Source: an uncultured Clostridium sp.
GTDB taxonomy: Bacteria > Bacillota > Clostridia > TANB77 > CAG-465
Length of the DNA stretch: 64,000 bases
Assembly: GCA_964481385.1 (NCBI GenBank)
Contig: CAYZTN010000001.1
Coordinates: forward strand, 255-64,254
Direction of reading: 5' to 3'
The position numbers and the translations under genes are program-made. The number at the start of each line of letters is the position of its first letter. Within the stretch, counting starts at the first letter, position 1. This document shows positions 8,628 through 40,062 of the stretch, piece after piece. The notes beneath the pieces are model-generated. The model did no database searches. It was not told the DNA's origin and saw only the letters and a list, made by a program, of their open reading frames with translations.

Positions 8628-8691
8628 TTTTTCTCCTTATTCCATATAAATATTGCCATTATCCTTAGTACTTCAAATTCTATACTTCAAA

Positions 8692-8721
8692 TAATTTATC
8701 ACATTTTTTTACACAGGTCAA
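8692..8721 (-). promoter_or_regulatory. Candidate sigma-A promoter for the pilus operon (TTGACC-18-TAAATT)
   Basis: Read on the minus strand upstream of pilMN. RBS AAGGAGA precedes the ATG at 8627. Confidence 0.3.
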
Positions 8722-8811
8722 CAAATTTCTTGTGCTTAATATAAATGTATCAAAACTGTAATATTTTTGTAATATTTTGTGCGCTTTTTTCAAGATTATG
8801 AAAGAGGACCT

Positions 8812-8843
8812 ACAAAAAAGGACTTGCAAAAAGTCCTTTTTTA
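8812..8843. terminator. Bidirectional rho-independent terminator
   Basis: aaaaaAGGACTTgcaaaAAGTCCTtttttatt. An 8-bp stem flanked by an A-run and a T-run, immediately 3' of the asp23-like gene. Confidence 0.7.
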
Positions 8844-9302: not shown

Positions 9303-9372
9303 AAGTATAAAACTAGTATATCAAAACAAATTTAAAATTCAAGCTATTCATATAATTTCACACAAACAAAAC

Positions 9373-9834: not shown

Positions 9835-9855
9835 TTTTTCCCTCCACAAAATATA

Positions 9856-10947: not shown

Positions 10948-11096
10948 CTTTTGTTATTTTATATCAAAAAACATAAATTATCAACGGTGAATTTAAAATT
11001 TACAAACTTCATCGCTTCAATATAATAAATATAAGATACACAATTATTAAAATTACTAGAGAAATTAAAAACTTACTTCTTTTATTCAAACCTAAT

Positions 11097-11924
11097 TCAC
11101 CTTCCGTTTTTTATATAATAATATGCAGTCACTATAATATACAACACTATATATATTGGAAACAAATATGACGCAATAAACCTAAAGCGCCCCATTGGGC
11201 TATACACTTTACCTAAAATATTTGAATAACAAACATAAATCAAAGCACACGCTAATACATTATAGGCACTAGCTTTTCTCGAAATAACAGCATTCAAATT
11301 ATATATCACATTTGCTGTTACTATAGTTCCTGCTAAAATTACAAAAGCAAAATTAAGTATTGTACTAAACTTTAGCTTATTTCTTTTCAAAACGAATTCC
11401 TTTACCCTAAACTTTGTAACCTTTTTTCGCAAGCTATTACTTAACTCAAAGCTTTGTAAATTCACTTTCTTTACATAAAGCTCTTCTTTTTTTAAACAAA
11501 CAAAATAATGAGAATATATATCTTCTTTTCTTAACATTTGAATATAGTTCATACAAGCCGCCATAAATTTAAACAATACATCTTTTATTTTTCTAGACTT
11601 TTTTTCGAAGTAAAATAAAGCATCAAATCCACAAGGGCTCTCATTTGCTAGTATAAAGTTATACAACACTATATCTATTTGATTTTTTGAAACACTTTCG
11701 CTTTTTGACAGCAATATATACTCTGACTTTGCATTCTTCATTTTATTTGTAATTTCTTTATGCAACAAACCTTTTGTACATATACATTCTAAATTATTTC
11801 TGATATACTGCATTTTTTTTAAATCTTCTTCTGATATATTTTTCTCATCATAACGCATCACTTGCTTTTTTTGAATTAAAAAAATGACCACTATAACGAG
11901 AATGAATATTGCTAAATAATTCAT
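11097..11924 (-). CDS. Hypothetical membrane protein
   Basis: 275 aa. N-terminal TM and multiple C-terminal TMs. No recognisable motif. Confidence 0.3.
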   Translation of the reverse strand: MNYLAIFILVIVVIFLIQKKQVMRYDEKNISEEDLKKMQYIRNNLECICTKGLLHKEITNKMKNAKSEYILLSKSESVSKNQIDIVLYNFILANESPCGFDALFYFEKKSRKIKDVLFKFMAACMNYIQMLRKEDIYSHYFVCLKKEELYVKKVNLQSFELSNSLRKKVTKFRVKEFVLKRNKLKFSTILNFAFVILAGTIVTANVIYNLNAVISRKASAYNVLACALIYVCYSNILGKVYSPMGRFRFIASYLFPIYIVLYIIVTAYYYIKNGR

Positions 11925-12008
11925 AAACTCCCCTTATACATGATCATATTATCACAAAAAAATATTAAATTAAATTTATATTACACCTCTATACATTTTT
12001 CGACATTA

Positions 12009-12791
12009 TTAGAACAAAGCGCTAAACCAAGGCTCAACTAAAGATATATGATAAACAGTAAGTACAACTAAAATTCCAAGCAACGCACTAAATATTAAAT
12101 GCAAATACGAAACATTGTCTTTTTCTTTTTTTAAAGAAGATATCATAAATGCTAAAAATAAAGCAATACCTCCTACCAAAAAGCTTTTAGTTATAATATA
12201 CAAATATATTGAAAGTGCAAAACTTACTGCAACTCTTGTACTTGGAAACGCTTCAACATAATTTTCTTTCTTTTTATTCATAATTCCTTTTATCACAACA
12301 GTAAGAAGAACAAGCACAAACAAAATTGTAACCAAAAGATGAGCCCTAGAACTTAGAATACTAGTAAGCATCGTCGTTGAAGCATGCGATAGCTTATCCA
12401 CAAACAAAAAATAAGCAACTATAACTGAAATTCCACCAGATATAAGTACGCCACCAGCTGCAATATCTTTAGCCGCCTTAGCATTTTCATTGTATTCCTG
12501 TGTAATTAAATCTACTATATACTCAACTGTTGTGTTTATCATTTCTGAAAATATAACAAAACCAATTGTTAATATTAAGCATATCATTTCAGTTTTTGAA
12601 AAGTCAAAAAACAAACTACATACAAGTACAAGCGCACCTATAATATAATCTATTCTTAAATTTCTCTCGGTCTTAAAGGCGTGAATTATGCCATTTAAAG
12701 CATAACGCATAGCACCCACAAGACTTTTGTTCTTATTTATGTTTTTTACCTCTTTTTTCTTTTTTTTATTTTCGCCCTCAGAATTATTCAA
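12009..12791 (-). CDS. dgkA: Diacylglycerol/undecaprenol kinase DgkA-like domain fused to an extra ~125-aa polytopic membrane domain
   Basis: Residues 25-135 match the DgkA pattern (AMRYALNGIIHAFKTERN...EMINTTVEYIVDLITQEYNENAKAAKDIAAGGVL). The C-terminal extension carries 3-4 TM helices. Conserved ybeY-dgkA synteny. Confidence 0.65.
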   Translation of the reverse strand: MNNSEGENKKKKKEVKNINKNKSLVGAMRYALNGIIHAFKTERNLRIDYIIGALVLVCSLFFDFSKTEMICLILTIGFVIFSEMINTTVEYIVDLITQEYNENAKAAKDIAAGGVLISGGISVIVAYFLFVDKLSHASTTMLTSILSSRAHLLVTILFVLVLLTVVIKGIMNKKKENYVEAFPSTRVAVSFALSIYLYIITKSFLVGGIALFLAFMISSLKKEKDNVSYLHLIFSALLGILVVLTVYHISLVEPWFSALF

Positions 12792-12792
12792 A

Positions 12793-13293
12793 TTAATTGC
12801 ACCCTTCCAATATTTTCTCTTCCAACGCTCTCATTTCACGTTTTTCTTCTTCTACTTCGTGATCATAACCTAGCAGATGGCATATGCCATGTACAATCAT
12901 ATAAAGCATTTCCCTATTAAAACCAGTACCATACTCAACACTATGCTCTTCTATAACATCCATGCATAATACTATATCCCCTAATGACATCTCTTCATCA
13001 TTTTTGCTTTTTTTCATTTCCGCAAGTTCTTCTCTAGAAAATATTGGAAAAGACAAAACATCGGTCTTTCTATCAACGTTTCTAAACTCACTGTTTAATT
13101 TCTGTATTTCGGGTTCTGTAACAACTCCAATTCCTACATAAACATTTGGCAAATGAAACCCTTCTAACTCAAAAGCTCTTCTTATTAAACCATCAATCTT
13201 GTCTTTGTATTCTGATATAAAGTCGTTGTACTTCCTAATAGCTTCTTCTTGTTCATAATTTGTATAATAATCTACGCTTATTCCCATAGTCAT
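12793..13293 (-). CDS. ybeY: rRNA maturation endoribonuclease YbeY
   Basis: 166 aa. Zinc motif HGICHLLGYDH. Confidence 0.9.
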   Translation of the reverse strand: MTMGISVDYYTNYEQEEAIRKYNDFISEYKDKIDGLIRRAFELEGFHLPNVYVGIGVVTEPEIQKLNSEFRNVDRKTDVLSFPIFSREELAEMKKSKNDEEMSLGDIVLCMDVIEEHSVEYGTGFNREMLYMIVHGICHLLGYDHEVEEEKREMRALEEKILEGCN

Positions 13294-14474
13294 TCTCCTA
13301 TCTCAACAAATTTTCCTATTTCTTCATCCATAACATACTGCATATTGTATATTATTCCATCCTTGTTTTCAACAACTTCTGTAGTGTGACTTATATATTT
13401 TTTCCCTTCACTCTCTAAAGTGCATAAAAAATTAGCCGAATCTCTTTCACCTTGTTTTAACAATTCTTCTTTGGTTTTTACTACAGATTTGTCGGAATAC
13501 TCTGTATAATTTTCAAAAACAAGTTTTAGTCTTAGGCCAAATATATTGAAAACTTTTTCTTCATTACTTATATCATATTTATACCCTTTTGGCAAACATT
13601 TTGCTACAATTTTTTTATTATTTATACCAATTCCTATTCCATGCTTCACTTCTCCGGTATATTCCTTTTGATTTTCAATATAATAATACTCTTTTGAAAA
13701 TTCATACTCTGTCTTTCCTCTTAACTCACCAGTTGCATGAACTTCTTTTGATACCTCACCATTTGCATAAAGCTTCCCCTCTATCGCAACACTTCCTTTT
13801 TCAATAAAGCTTTCAAGCTTATATAAGGCTGTTCCATTTTCGGCCACTATCTTTGTTATTACAGCGTCTTTCATTGCAACAATATTTCCCACTTTTTCGT
13901 TATTTTCCTTTTCTTCTGATATTACTTTTTCCACTATTTGCACATTCAGTGTTGTACCATGAATATTTACACCCGCCCACGCTACTTCATAAAACGAAGC
14001 CCTTAGCACATCACTTATTCTACTTTCCGAAATACCAAGTTTGTTTTTTCCTTCATACACATCGACTTCTCTAAGAACTTTCAATATATCTTCAGTAGCC
14101 ACGCTTTCATTTCCTTCCACATTTATATTCCATAAAAAAGTAGACGCAATATATATTCCAATTAAAAGTATAACAAAAAAAATAAATGCAATTCTTCTTT
14201 TCTTGTACTTTAACAATTTATAGTACGCGCCTTGCTTTTTTACAACCTTTAGCTTGCACTTTGTCCTGTTTAAAAGCGTTTCCATTTTTTTTAACTCCTT
14301 AGGCGTTGTATAAAAACAAATTTTTCCTGAATTTATATTTTTTATACTCCAAACATTCACTTTATTTATTATACATAAGTTTATAAACCTCTCGACAAAG
14401 TATCCTTCAACTTCCACTTTTATTGTTGTTTTTATATAATTTGAAATGTTGCTTATCTTCATTATACCCCCCAT
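13290..14474 (-). CDS. yqfD: Sporulation protein YqfD
   Basis: 394 aa. N-terminal ~90-aa domain, single TM, large C-terminal domain. Conserved yqfC-yqfD-(phoH)-ybeY order of endospore formers. Confidence 0.6.
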   Translation of the reverse strand: MGGIMKISNISNYIKTTIKVEVEGYFVERFINLCIINKVNVWSIKNINSGKICFYTTPKELKKMETLLNRTKCKLKVVKKQGAYYKLLKYKKRRIAFIFFVILLIGIYIASTFLWNINVEGNESVATEDILKVLREVDVYEGKNKLGISESRISDVLRASFYEVAWAGVNIHGTTLNVQIVEKVISEEKENNEKVGNIVAMKDAVITKIVAENGTALYKLESFIEKGSVAIEGKLYANGEVSKEVHATGELRGKTEYEFSKEYYYIENQKEYTGEVKHGIGIGINNKKIVAKCLPKGYKYDISNEEKVFNIFGLRLKLVFENYTEYSDKSVVKTKEELLKQGERDSANFLCTLESEGKKYISHTTEVVENKDGIIYNMQYVMDEEIGKFVEIGE

Positions 14475-14475
14475 A

Positions 14476-14832
14476 TTAGTTAAAACTAATAGTTAAAATA
14501 TCTCCTTCTATTACTAGCTCACTATCCTCCATTCCTCTTATTTCCATATTTTTTCCATCTATTATTATTATGTGTTTGCCTGTTTTTACTTTTATAAAGT
14601 GGCTATAATAGTCCTCAATTTTGTTTTTACCTTCCAAAAATATCATCTTATTTTCTACGATAGACATACGTGTTCCATCACCCACTAATTCTTGTGGTAT
14701 CTCTAAAAATCTAGTTACTTTTTCCTTGTATTTGTCTTTGATCTTCCCTATTTTTTTCATTTTTCTAAAATTAATTATTCCTTTATGCTTTTTTGAATTC
14801 ATTAGTACCTCCTCGCTAATAATTCTATTCAT
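14476..14832 (-). CDS. yqfC: Sporulation protein YqfC
   Basis: 118 aa, beta-rich; FLEIPQEL...IENKMIFLEGKNKIEDY...IEGDILTISF resembles the YqfC family. Located upstream of yqfD. Confidence 0.6.
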   Translation of the reverse strand: MNRIISEEVLMNSKKHKGIINFRKMKKIGKIKDKYKEKVTRFLEIPQELVGDGTRMSIVENKMIFLEGKNKIEDYYSHFIKVKTGKHIIIIDGKNMEIRGMEDSELVIEGDILTISFN

Positions 14833-14991
14833 ATTGTCTACTATTTATTCAAAATATTTTTAACAAAATGTAATTAAAAGTTTTACAAAATACATGTATA
14901 ATTTTACACACTGACAGATTGTAAAATTAAACTTGAATTAAACTGCTTTTGATTATAACATATAAACGTTACTGAAACGGAGCGGATAAAT

Positions 14992-15666
14992 ATGGTGAAA
15001 ATTGGTCTTTGTGATGACGATATAAATAGTCTTAAATACACTTCAAAAATTATTGAAGCGCAAATTATCGACATGAATCTTGATGCTGAAATAAGTGTAA
15101 TTACAAATGACCAAGAACTCATTAAACAAAAGATTATAAATCACGAAATAGATGTATTGTTCTTAGATATTGAATTTAAATCTGATGGCAAAAATGGCAT
15201 CGCATTCGCCAACGAATTAAGAACTTTAAACAAAGATTTTTCTCTCATATTCGTAACGGCATTTTTTGAATATTCAATGCTCGCATATCAGTGTAAAACA
15301 TTTGGTTATGTGTTAAAACCAGTAACCGTGCAATCTATTGCACCTATTATGCTTAGATTGCAATCTGAGTTTTTCCAAGAACCAAATAATTTTATACAAT
15401 TAAACAAATCAGAATCTATAAGAGCTAAGGATATTCTTTTTATTGAAAGAAATAAATCTAAAACAAAAGTATATACAGCTTGCGATACCTTTGAGACCAA
15501 TTATTCTCTAAACAATATGCAGGAATTTTTGCCAAAAGATTTCGTAAGAGTGCACCGTTCTTATATTGTTAATCAGAACAATATACAAGGAATTAACAAG
15601 AACGAAAAAGTAATTTTGTTTGAAAATAAACTTAGCTGTCCACTTGGGCAGCTTAAATCATTTTAA
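14992..15666 (+). CDS. LytTR-family response regulator (AgrA-like)
   Basis: 224 aa. Receiver domain (DVLFLDIEF) and C-terminal LytTR DNA-binding domain (FVRVHRSYIVN). Confidence 0.85.
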   Translation: MVKIGLCDDDINSLKYTSKIIEAQIIDMNLDAEISVITNDQELIKQKIINHEIDVLFLDIEFKSDGKNGIAFANELRTLNKDFSLIFVTAFFEYSMLAYQCKTFGYVLKPVTVQSIAPIMLRLQSEFFQEPNNFIQLNKSESIRAKDILFIERNKSKTKVYTACDTFETNYSLNNMQEFLPKDFVRVHRSYIVNQNNIQGINKNEKVILFENKLSCPLGQLKSF

Positions 15667-20203: not shown

Positions 20204-20659
20204 ATGGTCTGGCTTGAACAGTTCACCAAAACTTATCCAAATTTTAATGACTCAACTTGGCTGTATTGTCCAGAAAAAATTAGTGAAGAAGATTACGATA
20301 ACGTAACCAAACTTAGCTCTCTATTCGAAGCGTTAGAACGCTATGCTGGTGCGAACTATATTTCGGCTGGCAAATCTGAATTTGGAGCATTTTATACTAT
20401 TGCTTTTAATAATGCAGCTTACAAAATAGGAGTGGCTGTCGGGCAAGGAACAATATTTTATTGCGAACGCTTGAAAAACTCTCTCCAAGCTATTAGCTTT
20501 GATGATATTTCCCAAAACAAACGCCCATCAAATGTCTGTGAAATTGACGCCATTTTTAACATTGTTTATCAAGATTTGTCTCGTCTAAATACCGAATTTT
20601 CTATCCCTTGGGATACCATTTTGAACAAAATATCCGAAATTATTAAAAAAAATAGTTAA
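20204..20659 (+). CDS. Hypothetical protein (5' end probably disrupted or mis-phased)
   Basis: 151 aa with no RBS at 20204. The frame stays open upstream as ...NDLTFLEWYVKKEQETKTILLNDSY. A perfect RBS plus ATG at 20118 is out of frame by one base across an A6 run. Confidence 0.5.
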   Translation: MVWLEQFTKTYPNFNDSTWLYCPEKISEEDYDNVTKLSSLFEALERYAGANYISAGKSEFGAFYTIAFNNAAYKIGVAVGQGTIFYCERLKNSLQAISFDDISQNKRPSNVCEIDAIFNIVYQDLSRLNTEFSIPWDTILNKISEIIKKNS

Positions 20660-20662
20660 AAT

Positions 20663-20701
20663 TAAATAGTGTCATTTGGGACGTTTTCAAATGACACTAT
20701 T
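20663..20701. repeat. Palindromic intergenic repeat, copy 1 (AAATAGTGTCATTTG-ggacgtttt-CAAATGACACTATTT)
   Basis: Perfect 15-bp inverted repeat around the GGACGTTT core, between convergent genes. Confidence 0.8.
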
Positions 20702-20749
20702 TAATTGTTTCTCAATTAAAAAGCGACCCCAATGGGTCATTTTTTATTT

Positions 20750-21199
20750 TTATTCTTCTTCAGCTTCATCTAATATTTTTATCTGTGCTTCCATCATAGA
20801 TTTTATCTTAATTTTATATATTTGAACTTGTTTTTTTAATTCTTCAAACTCAAGCTCTTTTTCCCTAATCTTTCCTTCATATTCTGCAATTTTGTTTTGG
20901 AAGTTAATCTCCTGACTAGCTTTAAGGTTGCTTGCCTCTTGAAGTGCTACTTCTTTTATTTTGTCTGCTTGCTCTTTAGCGTTAGATATTGTTTGTTCTA
21001 TTCCTTGTTCAAGAGACTTGTAATATCTAACTGATTCCTGCAAATTCTCGCATTTATCGTTTAACTCTGTGTTTTCTTTTGTCATTGCTTCATAATCTAC
21101 AATAAGTTTCTCTAAAAATTCCTCAACGTCTTTTATATCATATCCGCCTATTTTAGCTTTTTTAAACACTTTGTTTTCTATATCTTCTGGTGTTATCAT
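20750..21199 (-). CDS. divIVA: DivIVA-domain cell-division protein
   Basis: N-terminus MITPEDIENKVFKKAKIGGYDIKDVEEFLEKL is the DivIVA signature. Coiled-coil remainder. Confidence 0.85.
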   Translation of the reverse strand: MITPEDIENKVFKKAKIGGYDIKDVEEFLEKLIVDYEAMTKENTELNDKCENLQESVRYYKSLEQGIEQTISNAKEQADKIKEVALQEASNLKASQEINFQNKIAEYEGKIREKELEFEELKKQVQIYKIKIKSMMEAQIKILDEAEEE

Positions 21200-21265
21200 A
21201 TAAATACATCCTCCTTTAAAACATCAAAAGTGGCAATTCTTCCTCACTGCCACTTACTTTCAAAA

Positions 21266-21754
21266 CTATTTCATCCATGTAAATGGAAGTTTATTTCTAT
21301 ACTGCGCTCTTTCTATGTCATTTTGAATTTCTATCGTCTTTGGTGTTATTAAATATATCAAAGATGATATCTTTTGTACACTTCCGTCCAACACAAACGT
21401 TGCACCACTTATAAAGTCAACTATTCTTCTATGATCTTCTTTATTAACTGTCTCAAGATTTACTATCACAGATTTTTTGCTCTTTAAATGTTCACCAATC
21501 TCTTTGACATCGTCAAAACACGCCGGTTGAGTTATCACCATTTTAGAACCAGAAACACTACTACTCATAGGCAGTATCTTAGGCTGTTTTGATACAACCT
21601 CTTCTGATTTATCCATATTTCTACGAGCAAAGTACCCAGCTCTTGTAGGCTTTTCTGGTTCTTCTATAACCTCTTCTGTATCTTCATACTCTTCTTCATA
21701 TTCGTTATCATTTGTGCTCAAACCTAATAGTCCCATGCATTTATCTAATATCAT
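21266..21754 (-). CDS. sepF: Cell-division protein SepF
   Basis: 162 aa. Acidic N-terminus and conserved C-terminal domain SVIVNLETVNKEDHRRIVDFISGATFVLDGSVQKIS. Confidence 0.8.
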   Translation of the reverse strand: MILDKCMGLLGLSTNDNEYEEEYEDTEEVIEEPEKPTRAGYFARRNMDKSEEVVSKQPKILPMSSSVSGSKMVITQPACFDDVKEIGEHLKSKKSVIVNLETVNKEDHRRIVDFISGATFVLDGSVQKISSLIYLITPKTIEIQNDIERAQYRNKLPFTWMK

Positions 21755-21909
21755 GGTCAGTCCTCCTATACTCTCTTACAACGTAATAATACTATATAGT
21801 TATTTCAATTGCAAGAGTTTTTTGCATATTTTGTATATTTTTTAACAAAATTATCTTGAAGCTTTTATATTCTCTTACTTAAGGTTTATCATTATTTTAA
21901 CACTAAACT

Positions 21910-23973
21910 CTATTTTATGTAAAGCGCTGGACGAAAAACATAATAAGCTCTCACTTTATTCGCAGGCTGTTCAAGTCGAGATGATGCAGGAGAGTTCGCA
22001 CCATTTCGTCCTACATCACCACCTCGTATAACACGGTTCTCCGAAGTATATATCTCCATTGTCCACTCCCAGACATTACCAGCTAAATCATATATATTCT
22101 TTGCTTTCCAAGCTTCATTTTTCCCTGTTGTATAATCCATATTTGAACTTCCACTACCAGTAAAAGCAGTTCCTTGTGAATTACTGTAGTTTCCCCAATT
22201 GCGCGAATCTTCTATGCTAGTTTCCGCATCAGATACAAAATTCATTATAGCATCCCACTGTACTCCATAACATAATGTTGATACCACAGATTTATGATTT
22301 TTGTACATATTCTGTGACAAATATACTGCGCCTTTTGTACCTTTTTCTGCCATTGACTCTCCCCAACTAACATAGTTATATACATATACATTCTTTTTGC
22401 TTACTACTGTGTGAGCTTCTGTTTCCCCGGTTCTTGGCTTAGTTGCCGTAGCATCTCCAGCCTCAAAACGTGCTATATAGAACCCTTTATATTTTCTTAC
22501 TGATGCGCACATTTTATTATATTCTTCTATTTCCCATTCACTTGACTCATATGGCTCTTTAAAATTATCATCTAATTTACCCGTCATTTTGTATATCTTA
22601 GAACCACTATAAGTCTCTGTTGCTATTCCTCTTACAAATTTAGTATAATCTTCTACCGGCACCCATACAAACTGGTTACCTATACATATGTCGTCCTCGC
22701 CAACGCCTCTATTTGCATCTTCTTGATTATCTGAAATAACCAACCCTGTACTTTTTAAGCCACCAACATAATAGAAGCCCTCTGGTACCATGCTTGTATT
22801 TATACTTTTTTTACATATTATTTCAATATTACTTGTTACATTATCTATATTGACTATGTCGGTTTCTTTGTTATATGCTGATTTTGTTATATCTAAATTA
22901 TTCATTATGACTGAAACAGACTCAAACACATAATCGTCGCTCAAGTTAAGCTTTGTTTCATAACTTTTTCCGTATTGTATATTCATAGCAACGTTAGAAG
23001 CAGTTGCTCCATCAAGGTCGTATGTTATGCTATACACATTTGCTGTTGCACTAGCTGTAATTATTACATCTCCTGTTACGCTTAATATATTGATCTCTCT
23101 TGTTGCTTCATTGTATACAGTAGCTGTTACATCTACCCCTGCCATTGTTACTTCTACGCTTGTTAACGTGTGACCTATTTTTGCCGTAAGTGTTGTTGTG
23201 TAACTTGTCCCCCATTTTAATGTATATGCTGTATTTGAACTTACTACTTCTGTTAAGCTTGGAGTTATTGTATATGTATTTGCTTCTGTTGTTGCTGTTA
23301 TTATTACATCGTCTGTTACTTTGTCTATTGTTATTGTTTTATTTGAGTCGTTATATGCTAAATCTGTTATATTTACTCCACCCATTACTACTATTACTTT
23401 TTGTAATGTATATCCTGCATCTACGGTTAATGTTGCTGTATATCTTGAATCATTTGCTATTGTTGTGGCCACGTTGTTTGTTGTACAATGAACCAATCTG
23501 TTTCTTATTTTTATCTCATCTGGTATCATTCCTAAACTTTCTATTATTTCTAGTTCACTTTCGTTTTCTGTTATATAAACCAGTTTTCCTTTTATTATTC
23601 TTAATCCTTCTTTATATTTATCTGGCACACTACCAAATATATCTAAATACGCGGCATCCTTGTATGTCATATTAAGCTTCGTTTCATCAAATGCTCTGTC
23701 TTGTAATATTCTGTTCGCTAAATATATGTCGTATATTTGACTGTATGTAGACATATTTAGCTTAAATACTGTCTTTTGAGTTTCACTTATCATATTTGTA
23801 GTACTTAAACTTATTACTACTGTTGTAGCAAGTATACTTAAAACAAGTATTGTTATTACAAGTACTACGATAGTTATTCCGTTTTTTCTATTTACGTTTT
23901 GTGGAACAAATAAATCAAACTTTCTATTGCTTGTGGGAATACTATTTAGAAGGCTTTTTTGCCCCCCCCCCAT
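21910..23973 (-). CDS. Large pilin-like protein: prepilin-type N-terminus + 3 tandem ~75-aa Thr-rich repeats + C-terminal FGE-sulfatase (SUMF1/DUF323) lectin-fold domain
   Basis: N-terminus ...RKNG|ITIVVLVITILVLSILATTVVISL. Repeats (YT..L....GYTL..V.V.M.GV..T...YN...) at aa ~175-400. C-terminus carries GNVWEWT, RVIRGG, YVSWGE, LCYGVQWDAIMNF, the FGE-domain hallmarks. Confidence 0.6.
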   Translation of the reverse strand: MGGGQKSLLNSIPTSNRKFDLFVPQNVNRKNGITIVVLVITILVLSILATTVVISLSTTNMISETQKTVFKLNMSTYSQIYDIYLANRILQDRAFDETKLNMTYKDAAYLDIFGSVPDKYKEGLRIIKGKLVYITENESELEIIESLGMIPDEIKIRNRLVHCTTNNVATTIANDSRYTATLTVDAGYTLQKVIVVMGGVNITDLAYNDSNKTITIDKVTDDVIITATTEANTYTITPSLTEVVSSNTAYTLKWGTSYTTTLTAKIGHTLTSVEVTMAGVDVTATVYNEATREINILSVTGDVIITASATANVYSITYDLDGATASNVAMNIQYGKSYETKLNLSDDYVFESVSVIMNNLDITKSAYNKETDIVNIDNVTSNIEIICKKSINTSMVPEGFYYVGGLKSTGLVISDNQEDANRGVGEDDICIGNQFVWVPVEDYTKFVRGIATETYSGSKIYKMTGKLDDNFKEPYESSEWEIEEYNKMCASVRKYKGFYIARFEAGDATATKPRTGETEAHTVVSKKNVYVYNYVSWGESMAEKGTKGAVYLSQNMYKNHKSVVSTLCYGVQWDAIMNFVSDAETSIEDSRNWGNYSNSQGTAFTGSGSSNMDYTTGKNEAWKAKNIYDLAGNVWEWTMEIYTSENRVIRGGDVGRNGANSPASSRLEQPANKVRAYYVFRPALYIK
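22780..23470 (-). repeat. Three tandem ~225-bp coding repeats inside the FGE-pilin gene
   Basis: Visible in the DNA and in the protein (TYTITPSLTEVVSSNTAYTLKWGTSYTTTLTAKIGHTLTSVEVTMAGVDVTATVYN and its variants). Confidence 0.6.
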
Positions 23974-24037
23974 TTACATATTTTTCCATAAGATGTTATC
24001 ACTCCCCTTTATTTTGCTAGTTTAATACCGAAGTCTA

Positions 24038-24460
24038 TTATCTATGATATATAACTCCATCATATTCTATACCTTTTAAGTAATACACATTGTTTGTATT
24101 TTCACAAATCACAAACACATCGCCATCGTTTACTGTTCCTCTACCTATATCCACAGTTGTATCTAACTTTTTTAAATCTACTACCATAAGCATATTATCA
24201 GTATCACCATTATATGCTAGTTCTGCACTAAAATTAGCATCCAAAGTATTTTTACCAACCACTTCCCCTGTTACAGGTAACGTTTTTTTTGTAGTTATAT
24301 ATTCTAAAGTTAAATCAGAAACTTTATCCACCTTACCTTTAAACGTCTCATAATTTGCTCTAGAAATACTTTTTACCCCAACCACACTTACTGTACTTAT
24401 TACAATAATCATTACGCTTACAACTACAATCAATAATGAAATCGTTATTCCTCTTTTCAT
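24038..24460 (-). CDS. Pilin-like protein (MKRG|ITISLLIVVVSVMIIVISTV)
   Basis: 140 aa. Same KRGIT/KKGIS N-terminal architecture. Directly upstream of the FGE-pilin. Confidence 0.45.
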   Translation of the reverse strand: MKRGITISLLIVVVSVMIIVISTVSVVGVKSISRANYETFKGKVDKVSDLTLEYITTKKTLPVTGEVVGKNTLDANFSAELAYNGDTDNMLMVVDLKKLDTTVDIGRGTVNDGDVFVICENTNNVYYLKGIEYDGVIYHR

Positions 24461-24470
24461 ACTTCCTCCT

Positions 24471-25688
24471 CTATTTTATAACAATGGTATCATATATTTT
24501 TAATTGATACTCTGTAGTTATGTTTTTTTCTTTCAATTCGTCATCACTTAAATTCTCAACAATTGAATTTAATCCATTACTTCTTGTAACTTTTACAGGT
24601 ACTTCTACATTTTTACCATATTTTAATATATTAACATAAGATACATCATTTCTCTCATATACTGCAGCGACTGGTACATATAGTCCAGTGTTTGTCCACC
24701 ACACAATTTCTAATTCTGTATTCCTAAATAAAGCCACTTGCTCTATACCATTTTCAACTTCAAATACTACATCCAAAGTGTTTTTCTCCTTATCTATATA
24801 ATATGAAACAAGCTTTGCTTTTAGTGTGTTTTGACTATCCCCTACCACTCTTAATTTATAGTTTGAGCCAATTTTCAAATACTCTTCATTTATAATTTCC
24901 GTTCTAGAATATATACAACAATAAAAATTATCTATAACTTTTATATTACTCTCAGTTACCTTTTTGCTTGCTAATTCTTTTATTCTATCAAACGTAATAT
25001 TTGTTATATCATTTGCTATAAGGCTTTTTTCTAAACCGTCTGTTGTATACGCAACTATCCCTTGTGCTGTTGCCACAACATTGTCACTAGAATTTTTCAT
25101 GTTCTCTTCGAACTTATTTCTCTCGTTAATAAGTTTTACAATTTCTTGACCAGAAGGACTAAGCTCAGATACTACAATTGCTCTTCTATTTATTAGTTCG
25201 TTTATATCATTTATATGATTTTGCATTTCAACATATGATGTTGTGCCTATCGCACTTTTTAGTTCTGCTCTAATTTGATTTTCAACCGACTCAATTTCAC
25301 TTGAATATACCACTGGTAAATTTTGCATAAGGCTTAATATTTCTGTATCCATCTCTTCTAGTTTTTCCAACTTTTTATCGTACTCAGCGTTTTTATATGT
25401 TGCAATTATTCCACCTTTAGCTGTTTTCTTACCTTCTGCTATGACTGGCACTAAACTTTTTGTGGTATCTCGTTCGATTATAGTTTCGTTTTTTATTATG
25501 TAAGACTCAGCAAGCGAACTAAATTCCAAAGTGCCTTTTTCAACCAAATAAGTTGTTTCACTATTTCTAACTATATTTGTAAATGTAATAATTAAAGCGA
25601 AAAATGCAATTATTACGATTATATACACAAACATCTTGTTCTTTGTACCATCTAAATCTAAATCAAACTTTTTAAGTTTTATTTTCAT
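24471..25688 (-). CDS. HlyD-like membrane-fusion / periplasmic adaptor family protein
   Basis: 405 aa. Short cytoplasmic N-terminus, one TM, a lipoyl-like segment (VPVIAEGKKTAKGGIIATY), a long coiled coil and a C-terminal beta-domain (GLYVPVAAVYERNDVSYVNIL...VEVPVKV). RBS AAAGGAG. No ABC transporter nearby. Confidence 0.45.
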   Translation of the reverse strand: MKIKLKKFDLDLDGTKNKMFVYIIVIIAFFALIITFTNIVRNSETTYLVEKGTLEFSSLAESYIIKNETIIERDTTKSLVPVIAEGKKTAKGGIIATYKNAEYDKKLEKLEEMDTEILSLMQNLPVVYSSEIESVENQIRAELKSAIGTTSYVEMQNHINDINELINRRAIVVSELSPSGQEIVKLINERNKFEENMKNSSDNVVATAQGIVAYTTDGLEKSLIANDITNITFDRIKELASKKVTESNIKVIDNFYCCIYSRTEIINEEYLKIGSNYKLRVVGDSQNTLKAKLVSYYIDKEKNTLDVVFEVENGIEQVALFRNTELEIVWWTNTGLYVPVAAVYERNDVSYVNILKYGKNVEVPVKVTRSNGLNSIVENLSDDELKEKNITTEYQLKIYDTIVIK

Positions 25689-26604
25689 AATACTCCTTTA
25701 TAATTTCAACGAGTTCGCGTTTAGGAAGTGTTCCGTCTACTACGATTTTATTCTCTAGCTTTTTGAACCAAGTAATTTGCCTTTTTGCATAGTGTCTTGT
25801 GTTAACTTTTAATATATCCACACATTCTTCAAGCGTTTTAGTTCCTTTAAAATAATCAAAAAACTCTTTGTATCCTATTGCTTGAGTTGCTGTGAAACTT
25901 TCTTTGCTCTGCATGTTATATAGCATTTTTGCTTCTTCTAGTACACCCTCTTCGACCATTTCGTCTACTCTTTTTTCTATTTTATCATATAACAAACTTC
26001 GTGGCATATCAATATATATTGTAATAAATTCGTAAGGGCTATCCGCTTTTTTCCACAAATTGTTTTCTGAACTATCCAAAGACTTTCCTTGCATTGCTAA
26101 GTACAATGCTCTTTCTACCCTACGTCTATTTTGTTTATCTACCACCTCTGCTCTTTTTATATCCAAACTTTGCAAAAGCAGAAAAAGCTCCTCTGTTGTT
26201 TTGGTCTTGCTAAGTTCATTAAACTTATCTTTTAATTTAGTATCAACTTCGTCAGTTGTAGGAAAGTCAACGTTATTTACCACCGCATTTATGTACAGTC
26301 CTGTACCTCCAACAATTATTGGCACTTTTCCTTTAGCTAGCACTTCTTCTATCTTCTCATAACACGCTTCTTTATATGTTTTTGCGTCATACTTTTCAGA
26401 AATGTCACAAATATCTATCATGTAGTGAGGTGTTCGTTTCATTTCTTCTTTTGTTGCTTTAGCAGTTCCTATATCAAGCTTTCTATATATCTGCATTGAA
26501 TCTGCAGATATAATAGCACCATTTAAAACATCTGCTACAGCCAGTCCTAAGCTACTTTTTCCAGAAGCTGTCGGCCCTATAATTACAATTACTTTCTTTT
26601 TCAT
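25672..26604 (-). CDS. miaA: tRNA dimethylallyltransferase
   Basis: 310 aa. P-loop IIGPTASGKS, and DSMQIY. Confidence 0.9.
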   Translation of the reverse strand: MKKKVIVIIGPTASGKSSLGLAVADVLNGAIISADSMQIYRKLDIGTAKATKEEMKRTPHYMIDICDISEKYDAKTYKEACYEKIEEVLAKGKVPIIVGGTGLYINAVVNNVDFPTTDEVDTKLKDKFNELSKTKTTEELFLLLQSLDIKRAEVVDKQNRRRVERALYLAMQGKSLDSSENNLWKKADSPYEFITIYIDMPRSLLYDKIEKRVDEMVEEGVLEEAKMLYNMQSKESFTATQAIGYKEFFDYFKGTKTLEECVDILKVNTRHYAKRQITWFKKLENKIVVDGTLPKRELVEIIKEYYENKT

Positions 26605-28517
26605 TATTTACGTGCAAATCGCCTTTCTATTTCATATTTAGATATTTCATATGCAGTAGGACGTCCATGCGGACATGTAAATGGTCTATCTAATTTTACC
26701 ATTTCATCCAAAAGTGCAATATGTTCCTCACGAGTTAATTTCATATTTCCTTTTACTGCAGCTTTACAAGCCATAGTATATACAAATCTTTTTTCTTTTT
26801 CTTCCGTTGTAGTTTTTGTACTGCCATTTAACTCGTCTAGCAAATCTGTAAACATTTCTTGGTAATCTACTTCAAACCTTACATTAGGAATACCAGCAAT
26901 TTTTACTGCATTATCTCCAAAATCTTCTATTACAAAACCAGCTTTTTCAAACATTTCCATGTTTTCATTTAAAAGCTCTTTTTCGCTATTTTTAAGTTCT
27001 ACTACTTCTGGAATTATTAACATCTGAGTTTCTTTTTCCTTAGCATAATATCTCGTCTTTATCTGTTCATACAAAAGTCTTTCATGTGCTGCGTGTTGGT
27101 CAATAATATATAACTTATCATTTATCTCTATTAGTATATAGGTATCAAAAAGTCCACCGATATATTTATATTTTACAGTAGTATCATATTTTGCCACTTC
27201 TTCTCTGGCCTGAATAATTTGGGCATCAGACAATTCTTGTTCAGCATTTTTTATTAAACTCTCACTTACAATATCTTTTATTTCAATTTCAGATTCATTT
27301 TTCGTATAATATACGGGTTTAAATGCATTTACTTGTGAAAGTTCAGGTGTACTACTTGCCTCTTGAATAGTTTCTAAAGGCATCTTTACGCTTTCGCTAT
27401 CATTCCCAATTAGACTTTCAGCTTGTTTTCTCGTATCTTCTTTCTTGTATTCAAAAGCTGTTACACTACTTGGTACATACTCCTCACACTCTTCTGAAAG
27501 ATTTTGAGCAAATGGACTTGTGCTTCTATGATAAGCTAATATAGCTGACTTAATAGCATAATATACTGCATCAAAAATCTTAGTTTCATTTTCAAATTTT
27601 ACTTCTAACTTTGCTGGGTGTACATTCACGTCAACTAAACTTGGGTTCATATCTACATTTATTACTGCAAAAGGAAATTTACCAATATTCAAATTTTGCT
27701 CAAAAGCACGTTCAATTGCAGCTGTTATAGTTTTGTCTTTAACAAATCTTGTATTTATATATGTGAATTCGTGTTGTCTTGAAGAACGTGACACTTTTGG
27801 ACTTCCAACAACGCCAGTAACTTTTATACCATCTTGTTCGTAAGACACACTTTGAAGCTCTTCATATATTTCTTTTCCAAATATGTTATATACAACAGTT
27901 TCTACCTTTCCATCTCCAGTTGTATTTAATACTCTTTTTCCATTAGACACAAATTTAAAAGCAACGCCTGGATTAGACAAGCTTAAGCGTGTCATTACAT
28001 CTTCAATATATCCCGCTTCCGTGGAATCTTTTTTTAAAAACTTAAAACGTGCTGGCACGTTATAGAAGACATTTTCTACCGTTATGCTTGTACCTTTGTT
28101 CCATGCAATTTCTTCAAACTCTTTTTCATTTCCGCCTTCTATTACATACTTGGTACCTGTATATTCGTCCGCTTTCTTTGTATCTAACGTAACTTTTGCT
28201 ATACTTGCAACAGACGCCAAAGCTTCTCCTCTAAATCCCATAGATGTTATATTTAAAATATCAGTTTCTTTTCTAATTTTACTTGTGGCATGTCTCTCAA
28301 AAGCAAGTTTTACATCATCACGAGCAATACCTGAACCATTATCTGTTATGTTTATGTAACTTATACCACCGTTTCTAATTTCTACACTAACTTGAGTTGC
28401 TCCTGCATCTATTGAGTTTTCCACTAATTCCTTTACAATAGAGGCTGGTCTATCCACAACTTCCCCAGCTGCAATTTTGTTTATTGTTATTTCGTCAAGT
28501 ATTGCTATTTGTCCCAT
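26604..28517 (-). CDS. mutL: DNA mismatch repair protein MutL
   Basis: 637 aa. GHKL ATPase N-terminus (ELVENSIDAGAT), C-terminal dimerisation domain. Confidence 0.95.
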   Translation of the reverse strand: MGQIAILDEITINKIAAGEVVDRPASIVKELVENSIDAGATQVSVEIRNGGISYINITDNGSGIARDDVKLAFERHATSKIRKETDILNITSMGFRGEALASVASIAKVTLDTKKADEYTGTKYVIEGGNEKEFEEIAWNKGTSITVENVFYNVPARFKFLKKDSTEAGYIEDVMTRLSLSNPGVAFKFVSNGKRVLNTTGDGKVETVVYNIFGKEIYEELQSVSYEQDGIKVTGVVGSPKVSRSSRQHEFTYINTRFVKDKTITAAIERAFEQNLNIGKFPFAVINVDMNPSLVDVNVHPAKLEVKFENETKIFDAVYYAIKSAILAYHRSTSPFAQNLSEECEEYVPSSVTAFEYKKEDTRKQAESLIGNDSESVKMPLETIQEASSTPELSQVNAFKPVYYTKNESEIEIKDIVSESLIKNAEQELSDAQIIQAREEVAKYDTTVKYKYIGGLFDTYILIEINDKLYIIDQHAAHERLLYEQIKTRYYAKEKETQMLIIPEVVELKNSEKELLNENMEMFEKAGFVIEDFGDNAVKIAGIPNVRFEVDYQEMFTDLLDELNGSTKTTTEEKEKRFVYTMACKAAVKGNMKLTREEHIALLDEMVKLDRPFTCPHGRPTAYEISKYEIERRFARK

Positions 28518-28670
28518 TTCTATACCCCATTTCTGCTGTTATTATACTATAATTTTTTTATTAATAAAAGGGGAAATGGAAAAATATTAAATAGAAAAAA
28601 CAAGGCCATCATAAAGTAAATACTTAATGATGATAGTCTTGCTTCTATTCAATATTTATTAACAATGTAT

Positions 28671-29447
28671 TTATCCATAAATCATTTGTTTATATTGTTC
28701 TGCTATTTGCTCCTCTACACATGCAATTTGCCTTCTCACACCTTTTAAAGTAACACAAACATCTAAAATTTTAGAATTATTTTTAGTTTCGATATTCTTT
28801 GTAAATTCACTCTCATAATTCTCTAAAAACTTTTTAAATTTATTTTTTCCAGACATCTTATTGGAGATTATTCTTCTAATTTTGGTAAATATGTCTTCTT
28901 TATATACTTGCAATTGAGACGAACTAATTACAAAAACAGTATCTATATCTGCTCGTACGCTTTCTATACACCAATTAATTCGTGCTTTGCATTCTTCTAC
29001 AATAACAGATAAATTTAATTTTTTCTGAGCACAAGCCATGATTTTATTTTGTATATTAAGTCTCTCTTCACTATCAAGCTCATCATTTTGCAAACTTTGT
29101 ACTAATCTGATCATATCCGCTATAACAAGTTTTTGAGTGTTCATCGTGTCTTGCATCATTTTAAATATGCTAACATACGTATTGTTATATGCGGTTATTA
29201 GCTTCTCCATCTGCAACTTATACACATCTACTTTATCTTCTATTTCGAACTCACACTTTTCTGTTTTTTGATTATACAATTTAGCCTGACGTTCAAAATA
29301 GTCTCTTAGCTCATCAATTTTTCTCTCTTTTACTTCCTGAATGCTTTTTTCGTACATTGCTAATTGCACCTTAGAAATCTGTCTTTCTATATTATCTAGA
29401 TTTTGTATATTCTGATTTAAATCTTCAAATAATTGAACTTTATCCAT
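28671..29447 (-). CDS. Hypothetical coiled-coil protein
   Basis: 258 aa, predicted mostly helical. No recognisable motif. Confidence 0.4.
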   Translation of the reverse strand: MDKVQLFEDLNQNIQNLDNIERQISKVQLAMYEKSIQEVKERKIDELRDYFERQAKLYNQKTEKCEFEIEDKVDVYKLQMEKLITAYNNTYVSIFKMMQDTMNTQKLVIADMIRLVQSLQNDELDSEERLNIQNKIMACAQKKLNLSVIVEECKARINWCIESVRADIDTVFVISSSQLQVYKEDIFTKIRRIISNKMSGKNKFKKFLENYESEFTKNIETKNNSKILDVCVTLKGVRRQIACVEEQIAEQYKQMIYG

Positions 29448-35539: not shown

Positions 35540-36529
35540 CTATCTTGTCTGTCCTATATCTTCTGGCTCATACCCCATACACATAACTTTGTCTATTTCT
35601 TTTTTTCTAGAATTAAATGACATAAGTGCAACCGCCCTAACATGTTCAGGAATTTTAGCATTAATCCTAGTCTCAACGCTATCCATTGCTTGCTCTATAT
35701 CCAAATTTTCATAGCAATCCATCATAAAATCATAAATATCATCATCTGTACAAAGCTCATCCAAAGTATATTTCCAAAGTGAAACCTGTTCACCATCAGT
35801 CGGCAAAACGCTAATTTTGGGATCTACCTTATCCATACTACGTTTTACTCCTACTGGATTCTCAGCTAATCTTTTTAGCAAATCATTATCCATATCTAAC
35901 ATAAGACTATGCTCATTGTCATACAACGGAGCTAGACGCAATTTCCCGTTTTCGTCAGATATAAGACTGATATTTTCGGTATGCCTATCCGCCTCACCAA
36001 CAAACATATCAAAAGCTAATATTTTTTCTATGCCCGTAACAAAGCTTCTTGTTTCTTCTTTCGAAAGGCCTTCCTTTTTCATACTAGCAATAGTCTTTTT
36101 TAACACATCTACAGCATCAACTACATCTATATAATCTGGGTTATCACAAGTGTTACCTATAAAAGAATCTAAACTATATAATTGCTCATTATCTTTTAAC
36201 ACGCTATATGATAGAATTCCGTTTTTTCCATCTTTTTTTACCAAATCGCAATGAGCACACTCTATACCAGCTTGACGTGCCAATTCTTCAACAATAAGCT
36301 CTGAATAAGCACTTGCATTTGGAACATCATCTAACATCATAGTTTCCTTATACAACGCTTTTGTGCCATTTAAATCTAACCAGTTTTTATCTCTAAACTC
36401 TGTACCCATCATTTCTCTAGATCCTTTTGGGAATAGTATATTTAACTTATCTAAATTAATATATCCTTCTTCGTCTCTAAAAGTTTCTAAATTCTCAGGA
36501 CTTGTATTTGTTATAGCATATTCTGCCAC
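35540..36529 (-). CDS. HipA/HipT-family serine/threonine kinase-like protein
   Basis: 329 aa. Catalytic-loop-like FDMFVGEADRHTENISLI (D-x-H-x-x-N) and LAPLYDNEHSL (the HipA APxYD motif). Size matches HipT (~335 aa). Confidence 0.5.
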   Translation of the reverse strand: MAEYAITNTSPENLETFRDEEGYINLDKLNILFPKGSREMMGTEFRDKNWLDLNGTKALYKETMMLDDVPNASAYSELIVEELARQAGIECAHCDLVKKDGKNGILSYSVLKDNEQLYSLDSFIGNTCDNPDYIDVVDAVDVLKKTIASMKKEGLSKEETRSFVTGIEKILAFDMFVGEADRHTENISLISDENGKLRLAPLYDNEHSLMLDMDNDLLKRLAENPVGVKRSMDKVDPKISVLPTDGEQVSLWKYTLDELCTDDDIYDFMMDCYENLDIEQAMDSVETRINAKIPEHVRAVALMSFNSRKKEIDKVMCMGYEPEDIGQTR

Positions 36530-36561
36530 TTTAACTCACCTCTTATGTTTATTGTATATAT

Positions 36562-37620
36562 TTATTCTCCTGCTTGCAATCTTTCTGCTTTATCAAAAGC
36601 TTGAAGTGCCTCTAGTAATTCTTCAATATTTCCATTCATAAAGCTTTCTAATTGATATATTGTATAGTTAATTCTGTGGTCAGTAACCCTGCCTTGTGGA
36701 TAGTTATACGTTCTTATCTTTTCACTTCTTGCACCACTTCCAACTTGAAGTTTTCTTGTAGAAGCAATTTCGCTATTTTGTTTTTCTTTCATATAATCAT
36801 ATAGTTTAGCCTTAAGCATTCTCATACAAGACTCTCTATTTTGTATCTGTGAACGTTCAGTCTGACAAGATACAACAAAGCCTGTTGGAATATGCGTAAT
36901 TCTTACTGCAGAATCAGTTTTGTTTATGTGCTGTCCGCCAGCTCCACTTGCTCTATATGTATCAAATTTTAAATCTGCTGGGTTAATCTCCACTTCTATA
37001 TCTTCAACCTCAGGTAGCACCGCAACTGTTACAGTTGAAGTATGTATTCTTCCGCTTGCTTCAGTTTCTGGAACACGTTGTACTCTATGAACTCCGCTTT
37101 CAAACTTTAACTTACTGTACGCCCCTTTTCCTTTTATCATAAAAGATATTTCTTTAATGCCACCAAGTTCAGTTTCGTTTAAATCCATAACTTCAACTTG
37201 CCAATGCATAAGGTCTGCATACATCGAATACATTCTGTACAAATTATATGCAAAAAGTGTAGCTTCTTCTCCACCTGCTCCACCACGTATTTCAATAATT
37301 ACGTTGCTATCGTCTGCCTCGTCTTTTGGAAGTAGCATTATTTTTAATTCTTCTTCTATTTCTCCAAGTTTTTCCTTGTTTTCATAATACTCTACTTCAG
37401 CCATTTCTTTCATTTCAGCATCGCTCATAAGTTCCTCGGCCTCGTCCATATTTTGCTTAGTCTTTTTGTATTCTCTATACTTTTCAACTATCTCAGTCAA
37501 ACCAGAATGTTCTTTCATGTATTTTTTAAATGTATTTGTATCTGCAATTACTGCTGGATCAGATATAAGCTGATTTAATTCCTCATATCTTGCTTCTACT
37601 TGTTCTAACTTTTCTAACAT
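36562..37620 (-). CDS. prfA: Peptide chain release factor 1
   Basis: GGQ motif ([12 protein letters not shown]) and PxT motif (PETEAS). Start reassigned to [15 protein letters not shown] with RBS GAGGTAAGG; the ORF-track start is 37668. Confidence 0.95.
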
Positions 37621-37698
37621 TTTCCTTACCTCATATATTATTTTAACATGTATACTAAAATTTTTCAAGACATATATTGTTATATGAAGGAGGGAATC

Positions 37699-37818
37699 TT
37701 GGTTTCATTAGTGTCATGCTGTCATTGGGGACGTTTCTCTTTGACACTGCATATATAATTTTAAGGTTTGTGTCAAAGAGAAACGTCCCCAATGACAGCA
37801 TGACACTAATGAAACCAA
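37699..37818. repeat. Palindromic repeat, copy 2 (120 bp, ~49-bp perfect arms containing GTCATTGGGGACGTTTC)
   Basis: TTGGTTTCATTAGTGTCATGCTGTCATTGGGGACGTTTCTCTTTGACAC ... exact reverse complement. Sits in the divergent prfA / GT2 intergenic region. Confidence 0.85.
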
Positions 37819-37831
37819 ATAACAAAATATT

Positions 37832-40054: not shown

Positions 40055-40062
40055 TAATTAAC

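Follow-up and report, generated by a model that had tools for sequence, protein, structure and literature searches.

A modular, putatively pilin-anchored lectin-fold protein in an uncultured gut Clostridium and its retroelement-diversified relatives

A modular pilin-like protein and its family

The window analysed here is a 64,000-nucleotide stretch from an uncultured Clostridium sp. (GenBank assembly GCA_964481385.1, contig CAYZTN010000001.1, positions 255 to 64,254), and the region of interest within it, 21910-25688, carries three open reading frames (ORFs) on the minus strand. These encode a membrane-fusion-protein-like (MFP) product of 405 residues (24471-25688), a 140-residue pilin-like protein (24038-24460) and a 687-residue modular pilin-like surface protein (21910-23973, stop codon included). 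The original prediction, made from the sequence of the window, had described three co-directional genes with short gaps, and the ORF list of the window agrees with it: 10 nt separate the first two ORFs and 64 nt the second and third. The explanation that I consider best overall, and fairly probable, is that the 687-residue protein is a modular pilin-anchored ligand-binding protein of fixed specificity, probably switched by a poly-G tract.

The conserved core of the family is the C-terminal domain (residues 395-687; 21913-22791, minus strand), which has the three-dimensional fold of C-type lectins and the formylglycine-generating enzyme (FGE), a fold common to FGE, SUMF2, EgtB, OvoA and PvdO. 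Its nearest structures, TvpA (PDB 2y3c) and TaqVP (5vf4), are both non-enzymatic and only 17-20% identical to it. The fold had been foreseen from sequence motifs and is borne out in three dimensions, although the Pfam FGE-sulfatase model (PF03781) stays below threshold on the 687-residue protein, with a partial match (residues 600-645) of 20.4 bits against a gathering score of 23.3; the same model matches 25 of 40 aligned relatives at E <=0.01, the best at 1.8e-10. As to function, the original prediction had offered either an adhesin or lectin or an enzyme, and only the binding role survives. The segment of the 687-residue protein that follows RGG and runs to FRPALY, RGGDVGRNGANSPASSRLEQPANKVRAYYVFRPALY, corresponds to the loop in which, presumably, the catalytic cysteine pair of FGE lies, and it contains no cysteine; the pair is thus absent. 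Because of this, the FGE enzyme was rejected as a candidate, and the protein is predicted not to be one. A phage tail fibre was likewise rejected, since the neighbouring genes are housekeeping genes.

Ahead of the lectin-fold domain lie three tandem beta-sandwich spacer repeats (residues 153-231, 232-311 and 312-391; 22801-23517, minus strand), as the earlier reading had proposed. They are 79-80 residues long, 30-42% identical to each other in pairwise comparison, and show a periodic strand pattern in the AlphaFold2 (AF2) model, with predicted local distance difference test (pLDDT) scores of 80-93. No DNA-level tandem repeat matching the protein repeats was found in the gene.

At least 991 homologues of the 687-residue protein exist, and nearly all of them align over its last ~295 residues only. 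The commonest architecture in the family is a protein of ~400 residues comprising a pilin-like N-terminus, a ~60-residue linker and the lectin-fold domain; among the matches listed, the full length including the repeats is common only to P0002 and P0003. An exhaustive search of 1.84 billion cluster representatives returned 3970 at E <=1e-3 and 1762 at E <=1e-10, and in uncultured gut Clostridia the family amounts to ~4,000 clusters at 50% identity. Some members carry two or more lectin-fold domains (P0005, P0054 and P0058), and there are giant proteins with 10-14 of them in tandem (P0217, 5309 residues; P0220, 6477 residues; P0221, 3424 residues).

The N-terminus of the 687-residue protein begins with a polar leader of 32 residues, the last of them Gly32; a hydrophobic alpha-1 helix comes next (residues 33-91; leader and helix together at 23701-23973, minus strand, from AF2, profile and alignment), and then a small alpha/beta head (residues 92-152; 23518-23700, minus strand; pLDDT 66-87). 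The sequence directly after the leader is ITIVVLVITILVLSILATTVV, so that the junction reads ...NRKNG/ITIVVLVITILVLSILATTVV. A basic leader, Gly at -1 and ~20 hydrophobic residues are features of class III signals, and here Ile at +1 and Val at +5 stand in place of Phe and Glu. AF2 places helices at residues 34-58 and 61-91, in effect one helix of ~58 residues (34-91), and models the head after it with no more than two short strands, at moderate confidence. Residues 30-80 are 45% identical (E 6e-10) to a 113-residue pilin encoded in the type IV pilus cluster of the window, the family profile matches Geobacter PilA-N (E 0.002, over alpha-1 only), and the Pfam N_methyl model finds weak matches in 5 of 40 relatives. 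On account of these three matches the N-terminus is read as pilin-type and not Sec-type, which sustains the original prediction on this point; a Sec signal was rejected because of the 32-residue polar leader and a pilin-like motif common to the pilins of the cluster. The pilin motif is present in 98 of the 120 best homologues; in these 98 the +1 residue is either Ile or Val, and position +5 is taken by Val, Ala, Ser, Ile or Thr. Across the family (best 120 homologues), Gly is kept at -1, with basic residues ahead of it.

The type IV pilus cluster itself occupies 1185-8627 on the minus strand, where Pfam T2SSE, MshEN and A24_N_bact score above their cutoffs and PilN below. It comprises a PilT-like gene (1185-2279), PilB with an MshEN domain (2292-3932), a 139-residue pilin-like gene (4154-4573), a PilD-like gene (4570-5433) whose product has a zinc-finger A24 N-terminal domain (E 8e-29), the 113-residue pilin (5583-5924) and a gene with a PilN-like C-terminal segment (6981-8627; PilN 19.9 bits, cutoff 22.8). 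Past ~residue 125 the PilD-like ORF continues with a Lys/Glu-rich stretch and then a soluble-looking tail, and it may want the second catalytic Asp. In all, seven ORFs in the window start with K/R-G-[IL]-[ST] and a hydrophobic helix (4154-4573, 5583-5924, 9373-9849, 9856-10947, 24038-24460, 21910-23973 and 60722-61201, all on the minus strand), and none of the seven has Glu at +5, not even the likely major pilin, which adjoins the PilD-like gene. An Asp23 gene adjoins two of the seven (9373-10947), which are not part of the pilus cluster, and another is situated between frr and tsf.

Hypermutation in the family and a poly-G tract in the window copy

The last ~45 residues of the family are hypervariable between homologues that are otherwise ~60% identical, with N, S, Y, G, D, A, C and F abundant among them. 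To look for signs of a diversity-generating retroelement (DGR), I screened 80 related genomic loci for sequences that repeat the 3' end of the gene. In three of them a pair of variable region (VR) and template repeat (TR) turned up, with nearly all mismatches at template adenines: 21 of 22 in L041, 18 of 19 in L053 and 11 of 12 in L079. Between VR and TR in L041 and L053, Pfam identifies a MutS_I-domain protein, bAvd and a reverse transcriptase (RT; RVT_1, with the motif IGNYTSQ). The cassettes (L041 7403-9361; L053 7239-9243) thus consist of a small MutS_I-domain (MSL) gene, bAvd and a short RT gene, with the TR downstream of the RT, which is the layout of the MSL-containing DGR architecture D of Wu et al. 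(PMC5758913). Proteins with an FGE-sulfatase C-type-lectin domain are also the largest class of DGR targets (PMC5758913). The target ORF as assembled in L053 has a frameshift inside the VR, perhaps owing to heterogeneity of the VR in the metagenome.

The signature extends to relatives beyond these three loci. The metagenome-assembled genome CALXJE01 holds at least nine family copies on separate contigs, and five paralogues in it have a single VR scaffold with patchy variation that begins at the x of GNVxEWT, a pattern that fits one template serving many remote targets. E, Q, K, M and W are the residues that AAY-to-NNY mutagenesis cannot yield, and 22 of 35 family VRs are without any of them. 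For ten of these 22, the VR was compared with the remainder of the gene to which it belongs. The fraction of C at third codon positions (C3) is 0.36-0.71 in the VR and 0.05-0.11 upstream; the same ten have a G+C content of 0.50-0.62, a third-position pyrimidine fraction (Y3) of 0.79-0.96 and no E, Q or K in 28 variable residues. Because the VR/TR mismatches are nearly all at TR adenines, and because RT, bAvd and MutS_I genes are present in the loci, the family belongs, on this sequence evidence, to the TvpA-type DGR variable proteins, with relatives that are demonstrably DGR-diversified, a link that the original prediction had missed.

The window copy looks like a member of the minority class of the family that is not DGR-written. 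The stretch equivalent to the VR of its relatives (GNVxEWT ... RGG ... FRPALY) lies at 21919-22080 on the minus strand. Only the self match came up when the 64-kb window was searched for a TR, by blastn at word size 7 and by an adenine-tolerant IUPAC pattern, 40-nt sub-patterns included. The TRs of L041, L053 and L079 gave no match to the window either, being too divergent, and against metagenome contigs the adenine-tolerant pattern found only poly-A stretches (at least 87% A), which is uninformative. Neither RVT_1 nor bAvd was found on the 37 window ORFs submitted to Pfam (most of those of at least 120 residues at 1185-15666, 20204-29447, 35540-45381 and 60054-63965, plus one at 50752-52167). 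In the VR-equivalent stretch C3 is 0.04 against a gene background of 0.07 and Y3 is 0.54 against 0.43, and E, Q or K, encoded by GAA, CAG and AAA, occupy 3 of the 28 variable residues. G+C is 0.45 there against 0.36, and A is 0.27 against 0.38; this mild excess and deficit may be a relic. Given that there is no TR in the window and no RT in the scanned ORFs, that codon usage is that of the background and that E, Q and K are present, the window copy appears not to be diversified, and I regard it with moderate confidence as descended from DGR targets and now of fixed specificity.

The start of the gene carries a feature of another kind. A run of ten G (23962-23971, minus strand) spans codons 1-4 of the annotated 687-residue ORF and is a candidate tract for slipped-strand phase variation; the original prediction had overlooked it. 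It is the only run of G or C of seven or more in the window, where ~0.005 runs of ten or more would be expected, and 877 kb of related loci contain no such run of eight or more, save at the same locus in L207. Two start codons bear on its reading. An alternative start read from the sequence, ATG(1) at 23987-23989 (minus strand), has a Shine-Dalgarno-like (SD) GGGGAG 12 nt upstream of it (24002-24007) and is in frame with the long ORF only at 9 or 12 G; the annotated start, ATG(2), has no SD and is in frame only at 7, 10 or 13 G. No other in-frame start codon was found ahead of the pilin motif.

All tract lengths are assembly calls. Two contigs from other assemblies, found via the 140-residue protein, stop exactly at the start of the 687-residue gene; in one sample (SRR14160761, L207) the tract is G8, and in the other (SRR36265378, L208) a contig break falls inside it. 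In a further genome (L209), the paralogue P0025 has a homologous leader upstream of it, ATGGAAAATAATGTAAATG-G9-CAAAAAAGC (G9 at 8030-8038), whose equivalent reading from the upstream ATG, MENNVNGGGQKS, is in frame. The uniqueness of the tract and its differences in length (8 and 10, and 9 at the paralogous locus) suggest phase variation. Poly-G/C contingency loci control surface genes in Campylobacter, Neisseria and Haemophilus. The window tract resembles them: it is a long run of G at the very start of the coding sequence for a surface protein, has no counterpart in its AT-rich surroundings and varies in length between samples. Its lengths, however, are assembly calls, and its switching is a prediction. 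The stretch of L209 that separates the poly-G leader from the P0025 pilin start (8060-8200) also contains an inverted repeat followed by a T-run, resembling a terminator, and then a strong second SD with its own ATG. The frame is open across all ~68 codons despite the terminator-like site, which may amount to a leader or attenuator arrangement.

Genomic setting and the three-gene region

The 140-residue ORF begins with MKRGITISLLIVVV, in which the motif MKRG/ITISL has no Glu at +5. Its product has no match in Pfam or NCBIfam. By profile comparison it is homologous to a 158-residue pilin-like ORF of the window (96.9% probability) and to the N-terminal 160 residues of P0098-type relatives (96.6% probability), in which such a module is fused directly to the lectin-fold domain. 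The gene is thus taken, from these comparisons, to be a free-standing copy of the carrier module that other family members have fused to that domain.

The 405-residue protein has an N-terminal transmembrane helix and matches Pfam HlyD_2 well above the cutoff (E 2.4e-24, 86 bits, cutoff 25). It also has a weak match to TIGR02828, "putative membrane fusion protein", and its homologues carry the RND-related MFP domains PF26011, PF26012 and PF26018. No ABC, RND or MFS partner adjoins the MFP gene in the window or in relatives, its neighbours being mutL, miaA, pilin-like genes and sepF. A HlyD-family protein with no partner ABC transporter was what had been proposed, and this part holds.

The functional three-gene operon of the same proposal does not, since synteny in relatives reveals nested insertions at a miaA-MFP-sepF backbone. 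In the window, mutL (26604-28517) and miaA (25672-26604), whose stop overlaps the MFP start, lie upstream of the region, with sepF (21266-21754) and divIVA (20750-21199) on its downstream side. All homologues of the 140-residue protein (at least 47) sit in the order mutL-miaA-MFP-[140aa]-sepF-divIVA, without the 687-residue gene. Distant MFP orthologues (29-35% identity) either keep mutL-miaA-MFP-sepF-divIVA without any pilin-like gene or have unrelated genes after the MFP. The 687-residue gene is missing from every syntenic relative examined, and other members of its family occupy unrelated gene contexts. To judge by this gene order, the history is a nested one, in which a conserved miaA-MFP backbone received the small pilin-like gene in a subclade and the 687-residue gene in this lineage only. 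Because relatives show such nested insertions, the MFP gene is best assigned to the conserved mutL-miaA-MFP-sepF neighbourhood and is not read as a dedicated partner of the pilin-like genes. In one syntenic relative (L005; GCA_054278095.1) a family member with a DGR-like VR (8646-10073) stands between divIVA/DUF2238 and valS, only a few genes from the insertion point of the window copy, and this neighbourhood seems to attract such insertions repeatedly.

The window as a whole has ~31% G+C and includes the sporulation genes YqfD and Spo0A. No terminator-like site was found by a terminator scan of the minus strand between the MFP ORF and sepF, and a promoter scan was uninformative (32 sites, 29.5 expected). 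Elsewhere in the window, a plus-strand island at 37832-40054 lies amid a minus-strand region, with a flip in GC skew; it encodes a family 2 glycosyltransferase (GT2) with TPR repeats and then a 354-residue protein with collagen triple-helix repeats, and is similar to loci of exosporium BclA-type glycoproteins. An ORF with a HipA_C-like kinase domain (35540-36529, minus strand; E 8e-10) adjoins prfB.

Competing readings, known systems and significance

Several results weigh against parts of the explanation given at the outset. At the N-terminus, AF2 confidence is low (pLDDT below 50 at residues 1-32 and 56-62, mean 50-74 over 31-70), the Pfam N_methyl model (PF07963/IPR012902) does not match the 687-residue protein, and Glu5, which is normally required for pilin packing, is absent from it and from all 98 motif-bearing family N-termini. 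The PilD-like ORF has no Peptidase_A24 match in Pfam and no recognisable peptidase domain, which casts doubt on whether the pilin-like proteins are cleaved and, if so, by what means, and no PilC platform gene was seen in the 64-kb window. As for diversification, a DGR cassette lies within 6 kb in only 3 of the 80 related loci, most DGR-like VRs of relatives having none nearby, and the fixed specificity of the window copy is read from only 64 kb of its genome. The differences in tract length could stem from homopolymer sequencing or assembly errors, and the window gene may currently be silent (OFF or low-expressed), with the SD-preceded ATG(1) out of frame at G10.

Incorporation of the protein into a pilus is plausible in the face of these points, and its main rival is a plain membrane anchor. 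The protein would then be a type II membrane protein with an uncleaved signal-anchor, displaying its lectin fold on a stalk of repeats at the cell surface and never entering a pilus. The missing Glu5, the failure of N_methyl, the PilD-like ORF without a peptidase domain and a leader that is atypically long at 32 residues all suit this reading, and the three repeats could act as a wall-spanning stalk. Against it, the same motif starts the small pilin genes of the cluster that adjoin PilB/PilT and the PilN-like gene, Gly at -1 after basic residues is retained throughout the family, the family profile matches PilA-N, and the linker of the common ~400-residue members would be too short, at ~60 residues, for a Gram-positive wall. 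I therefore consider the anchor unlikely, if the most serious of the alternatives. A dedicated three-gene system, with the HlyD-like adaptor exporting or assembling both pilin-like proteins, has in its favour co-directional genes with short, terminator-free gaps and MFP and 140-residue families of similar size (at least 48 and at least 47 matches). It founders on the distant MFP orthologues that hold their position between miaA and sepF with no pilin-like gene, on the absence of the 687-residue gene from all syntenic relatives examined, on the unrelated contexts of other family members and on the lack of any transporter partner, and is very improbable.

The two remaining alternatives concern the C-terminal domain. 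Treponema denticola, with seven scattered TvpA paralogues, provides the model for the view that the 687-residue gene is an active remote DGR target whose 3' end is rewritten in trans by a TR and RT elsewhere. The family is clearly DGR-targeted, the scarcity of nearby cassettes makes trans targeting the rule among relatives, the VR-equivalent of the window copy is still somewhat GC-rich and A-poor, and the view is limited to 64 kb of genome. However, its C3 of 0.04 is far from the 0.36-0.71 of written VRs, its GAA, CAG, AAA, AGA, GTA, GGA and CGA codons cannot come from AAY template codons, and even the adenine-tolerant pattern found no TR in the window, so that active targeting seems improbable, more so than the membrane anchor. 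Least credible of all, to the point of being nearly dismissed, is an FGE/EgtB/PvdO-type enzyme acting on a surface substrate. The fold is indeed common to such enzymes, and the GNVWEW and RGG motifs are present. The equivalent of the FGE active-site loop is nevertheless cysteine-free and, in relatives, hypervariable, as a fixed active site could not be; moreover, the nearest structures are non-enzymatic and the DinB-type iron-binding domain of EgtB is missing.

The favoured explanation, a pilin-anchored ligand-binding protein of fixed specificity, would work as follows. A clade-specific, Glu5-less type IV pilin signal and alpha-1 helix, of the type also used by the pilins of the window's pilus cluster, would insert the protein into the membrane, from where the type IV pilus machinery (1185-8627) would take it up, most likely at or near the filament tip. 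The three Ig-like repeats would serve as spacer and the C-terminal TvpA-type C-type-lectin/FGE-fold domain as binding module, not enzyme, for a carbohydrate or protein ligand in the gut. In many relatives the last ~55 codons are a VR rewritten by a DGR with the layout target, MutS-like gene, bAvd, RT and TR, whereas the window copy, a lone insertion between the small pilin-like gene and sepF, is most likely of fixed specificity, its expression probably toggled by slippage of the G10 tract in the first codons.

Parts of this scheme have precedents. TvpA has a lipoprotein signal, whereas the window domain stands on a pilin-like N-terminus and Ig-like repeats. TvpA (Treponema denticola variable protein 1) and TaqVP belong to the DGR variable proteins with a C-type-lectin fold of the FGE subtype (category b in Wu et al., 2018; PMC5758913); unlike them, the window copy has no TR or identified RT in 64 kb, and its VR-equivalent appears not to be DGR-written. 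Modular type IV pilins are represented by PilC, with a lectin module, and PilB, with a vWA module, of Streptococcus sanguinis (PMC9934059, PMC8179133), which share with the window protein a short pilin module joined to a bulky binding module, a monoderm host with type IV pilus machinery, and a proposed tip location and role in adhesion. They differ in having canonical class III signals with Glu5 and genes inside the pil operon, whereas the window gene lies outside the pilus cluster and Glu5 is absent from all pilin-like proteins; the module, too, is a predicted FGE-type lectin fold in place of a ConA-like or vWA one. The GspK/PilX-type K subunit and S. sanguinis PilA do lack Glu5, as tip-most subunits with no subunit above them (PMC9934059). 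In those systems one subunit per system is Glu5-less; here it is all window pilin-like ORFs and 98 family N-termini. In Bacteroides, according to a preprint (bioRxiv 10.1101/2024.11.15.621889), a DGR varies the adhesive component of a pilus, again in gut bacteria and with the logic seen in the relatives of the window gene, although those pili are of type V and belong to diderm Bacteroidota, whereas those considered here would be type-IV-like and belong to Clostridia.

The original prediction did not recognise the architecture as a described one, and novelty in this respect is not supported. One of its two catalogued domains, IPR005532, is presumably the sulfatase-modifying-factor (SUMF) domain. 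Modular pilins are established, and a pilin motif with a SUMF domain (IPR012902-IPR005532, 8 proteins) is among the 264 architectures in Dataset S1 of PMC8179133; the architecture is thus catalogued but uncharacterised. A survey (PMC11661182) records one GspG-type pilin domain holding a VR, and a study of TANB77 pilins (PMC11680825) treats a Tad-like cluster, not the 687-residue family. The features that appear to be new are the size that the family reaches among uncultured gut Clostridia, its uniformly Glu5-less anchors, which standard pilin models miss, its link to MSL-type DGRs acting on many paralogues and, for the window copy, a poly-G switch that replaces or supplements hypermutation.

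DGR-diversified lectin-fold proteins and modular pilins are each known, and their combination has been glimpsed only in catalogue tables and, for type V pili, in Bacteroides. In the family described here, from uncultured gut Clostridia, the pilin-anchored adhesins seem to have a binding surface that a retroelement rewrites. A wider proposal, which I put forward tentatively and hold to be possible but doubtful, is that a divergent Glu5-less type IV filament in these bacteria shows interchangeable, multi-copy tip adhesins whose lectin-fold heads are hypermutated in trans by one MutS-like/Avd/RT retroelement, some copies being also, or instead, poly-G-gated. If true, this would be a two-layer system of antigenic and ligand variation on a Gram-positive pilus. 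The lesson of the window gene is more modest: it would be a non-diversified member, inserted beside cell-division genes, probably phase-variable and outside any HlyD-pilin export operon. If confirmed, the findings would offer a testable model of how Gram-positive gut commensals vary their adhesion specificity and would widen the sequence definition of type IV pilins beyond the Glu5 rule.

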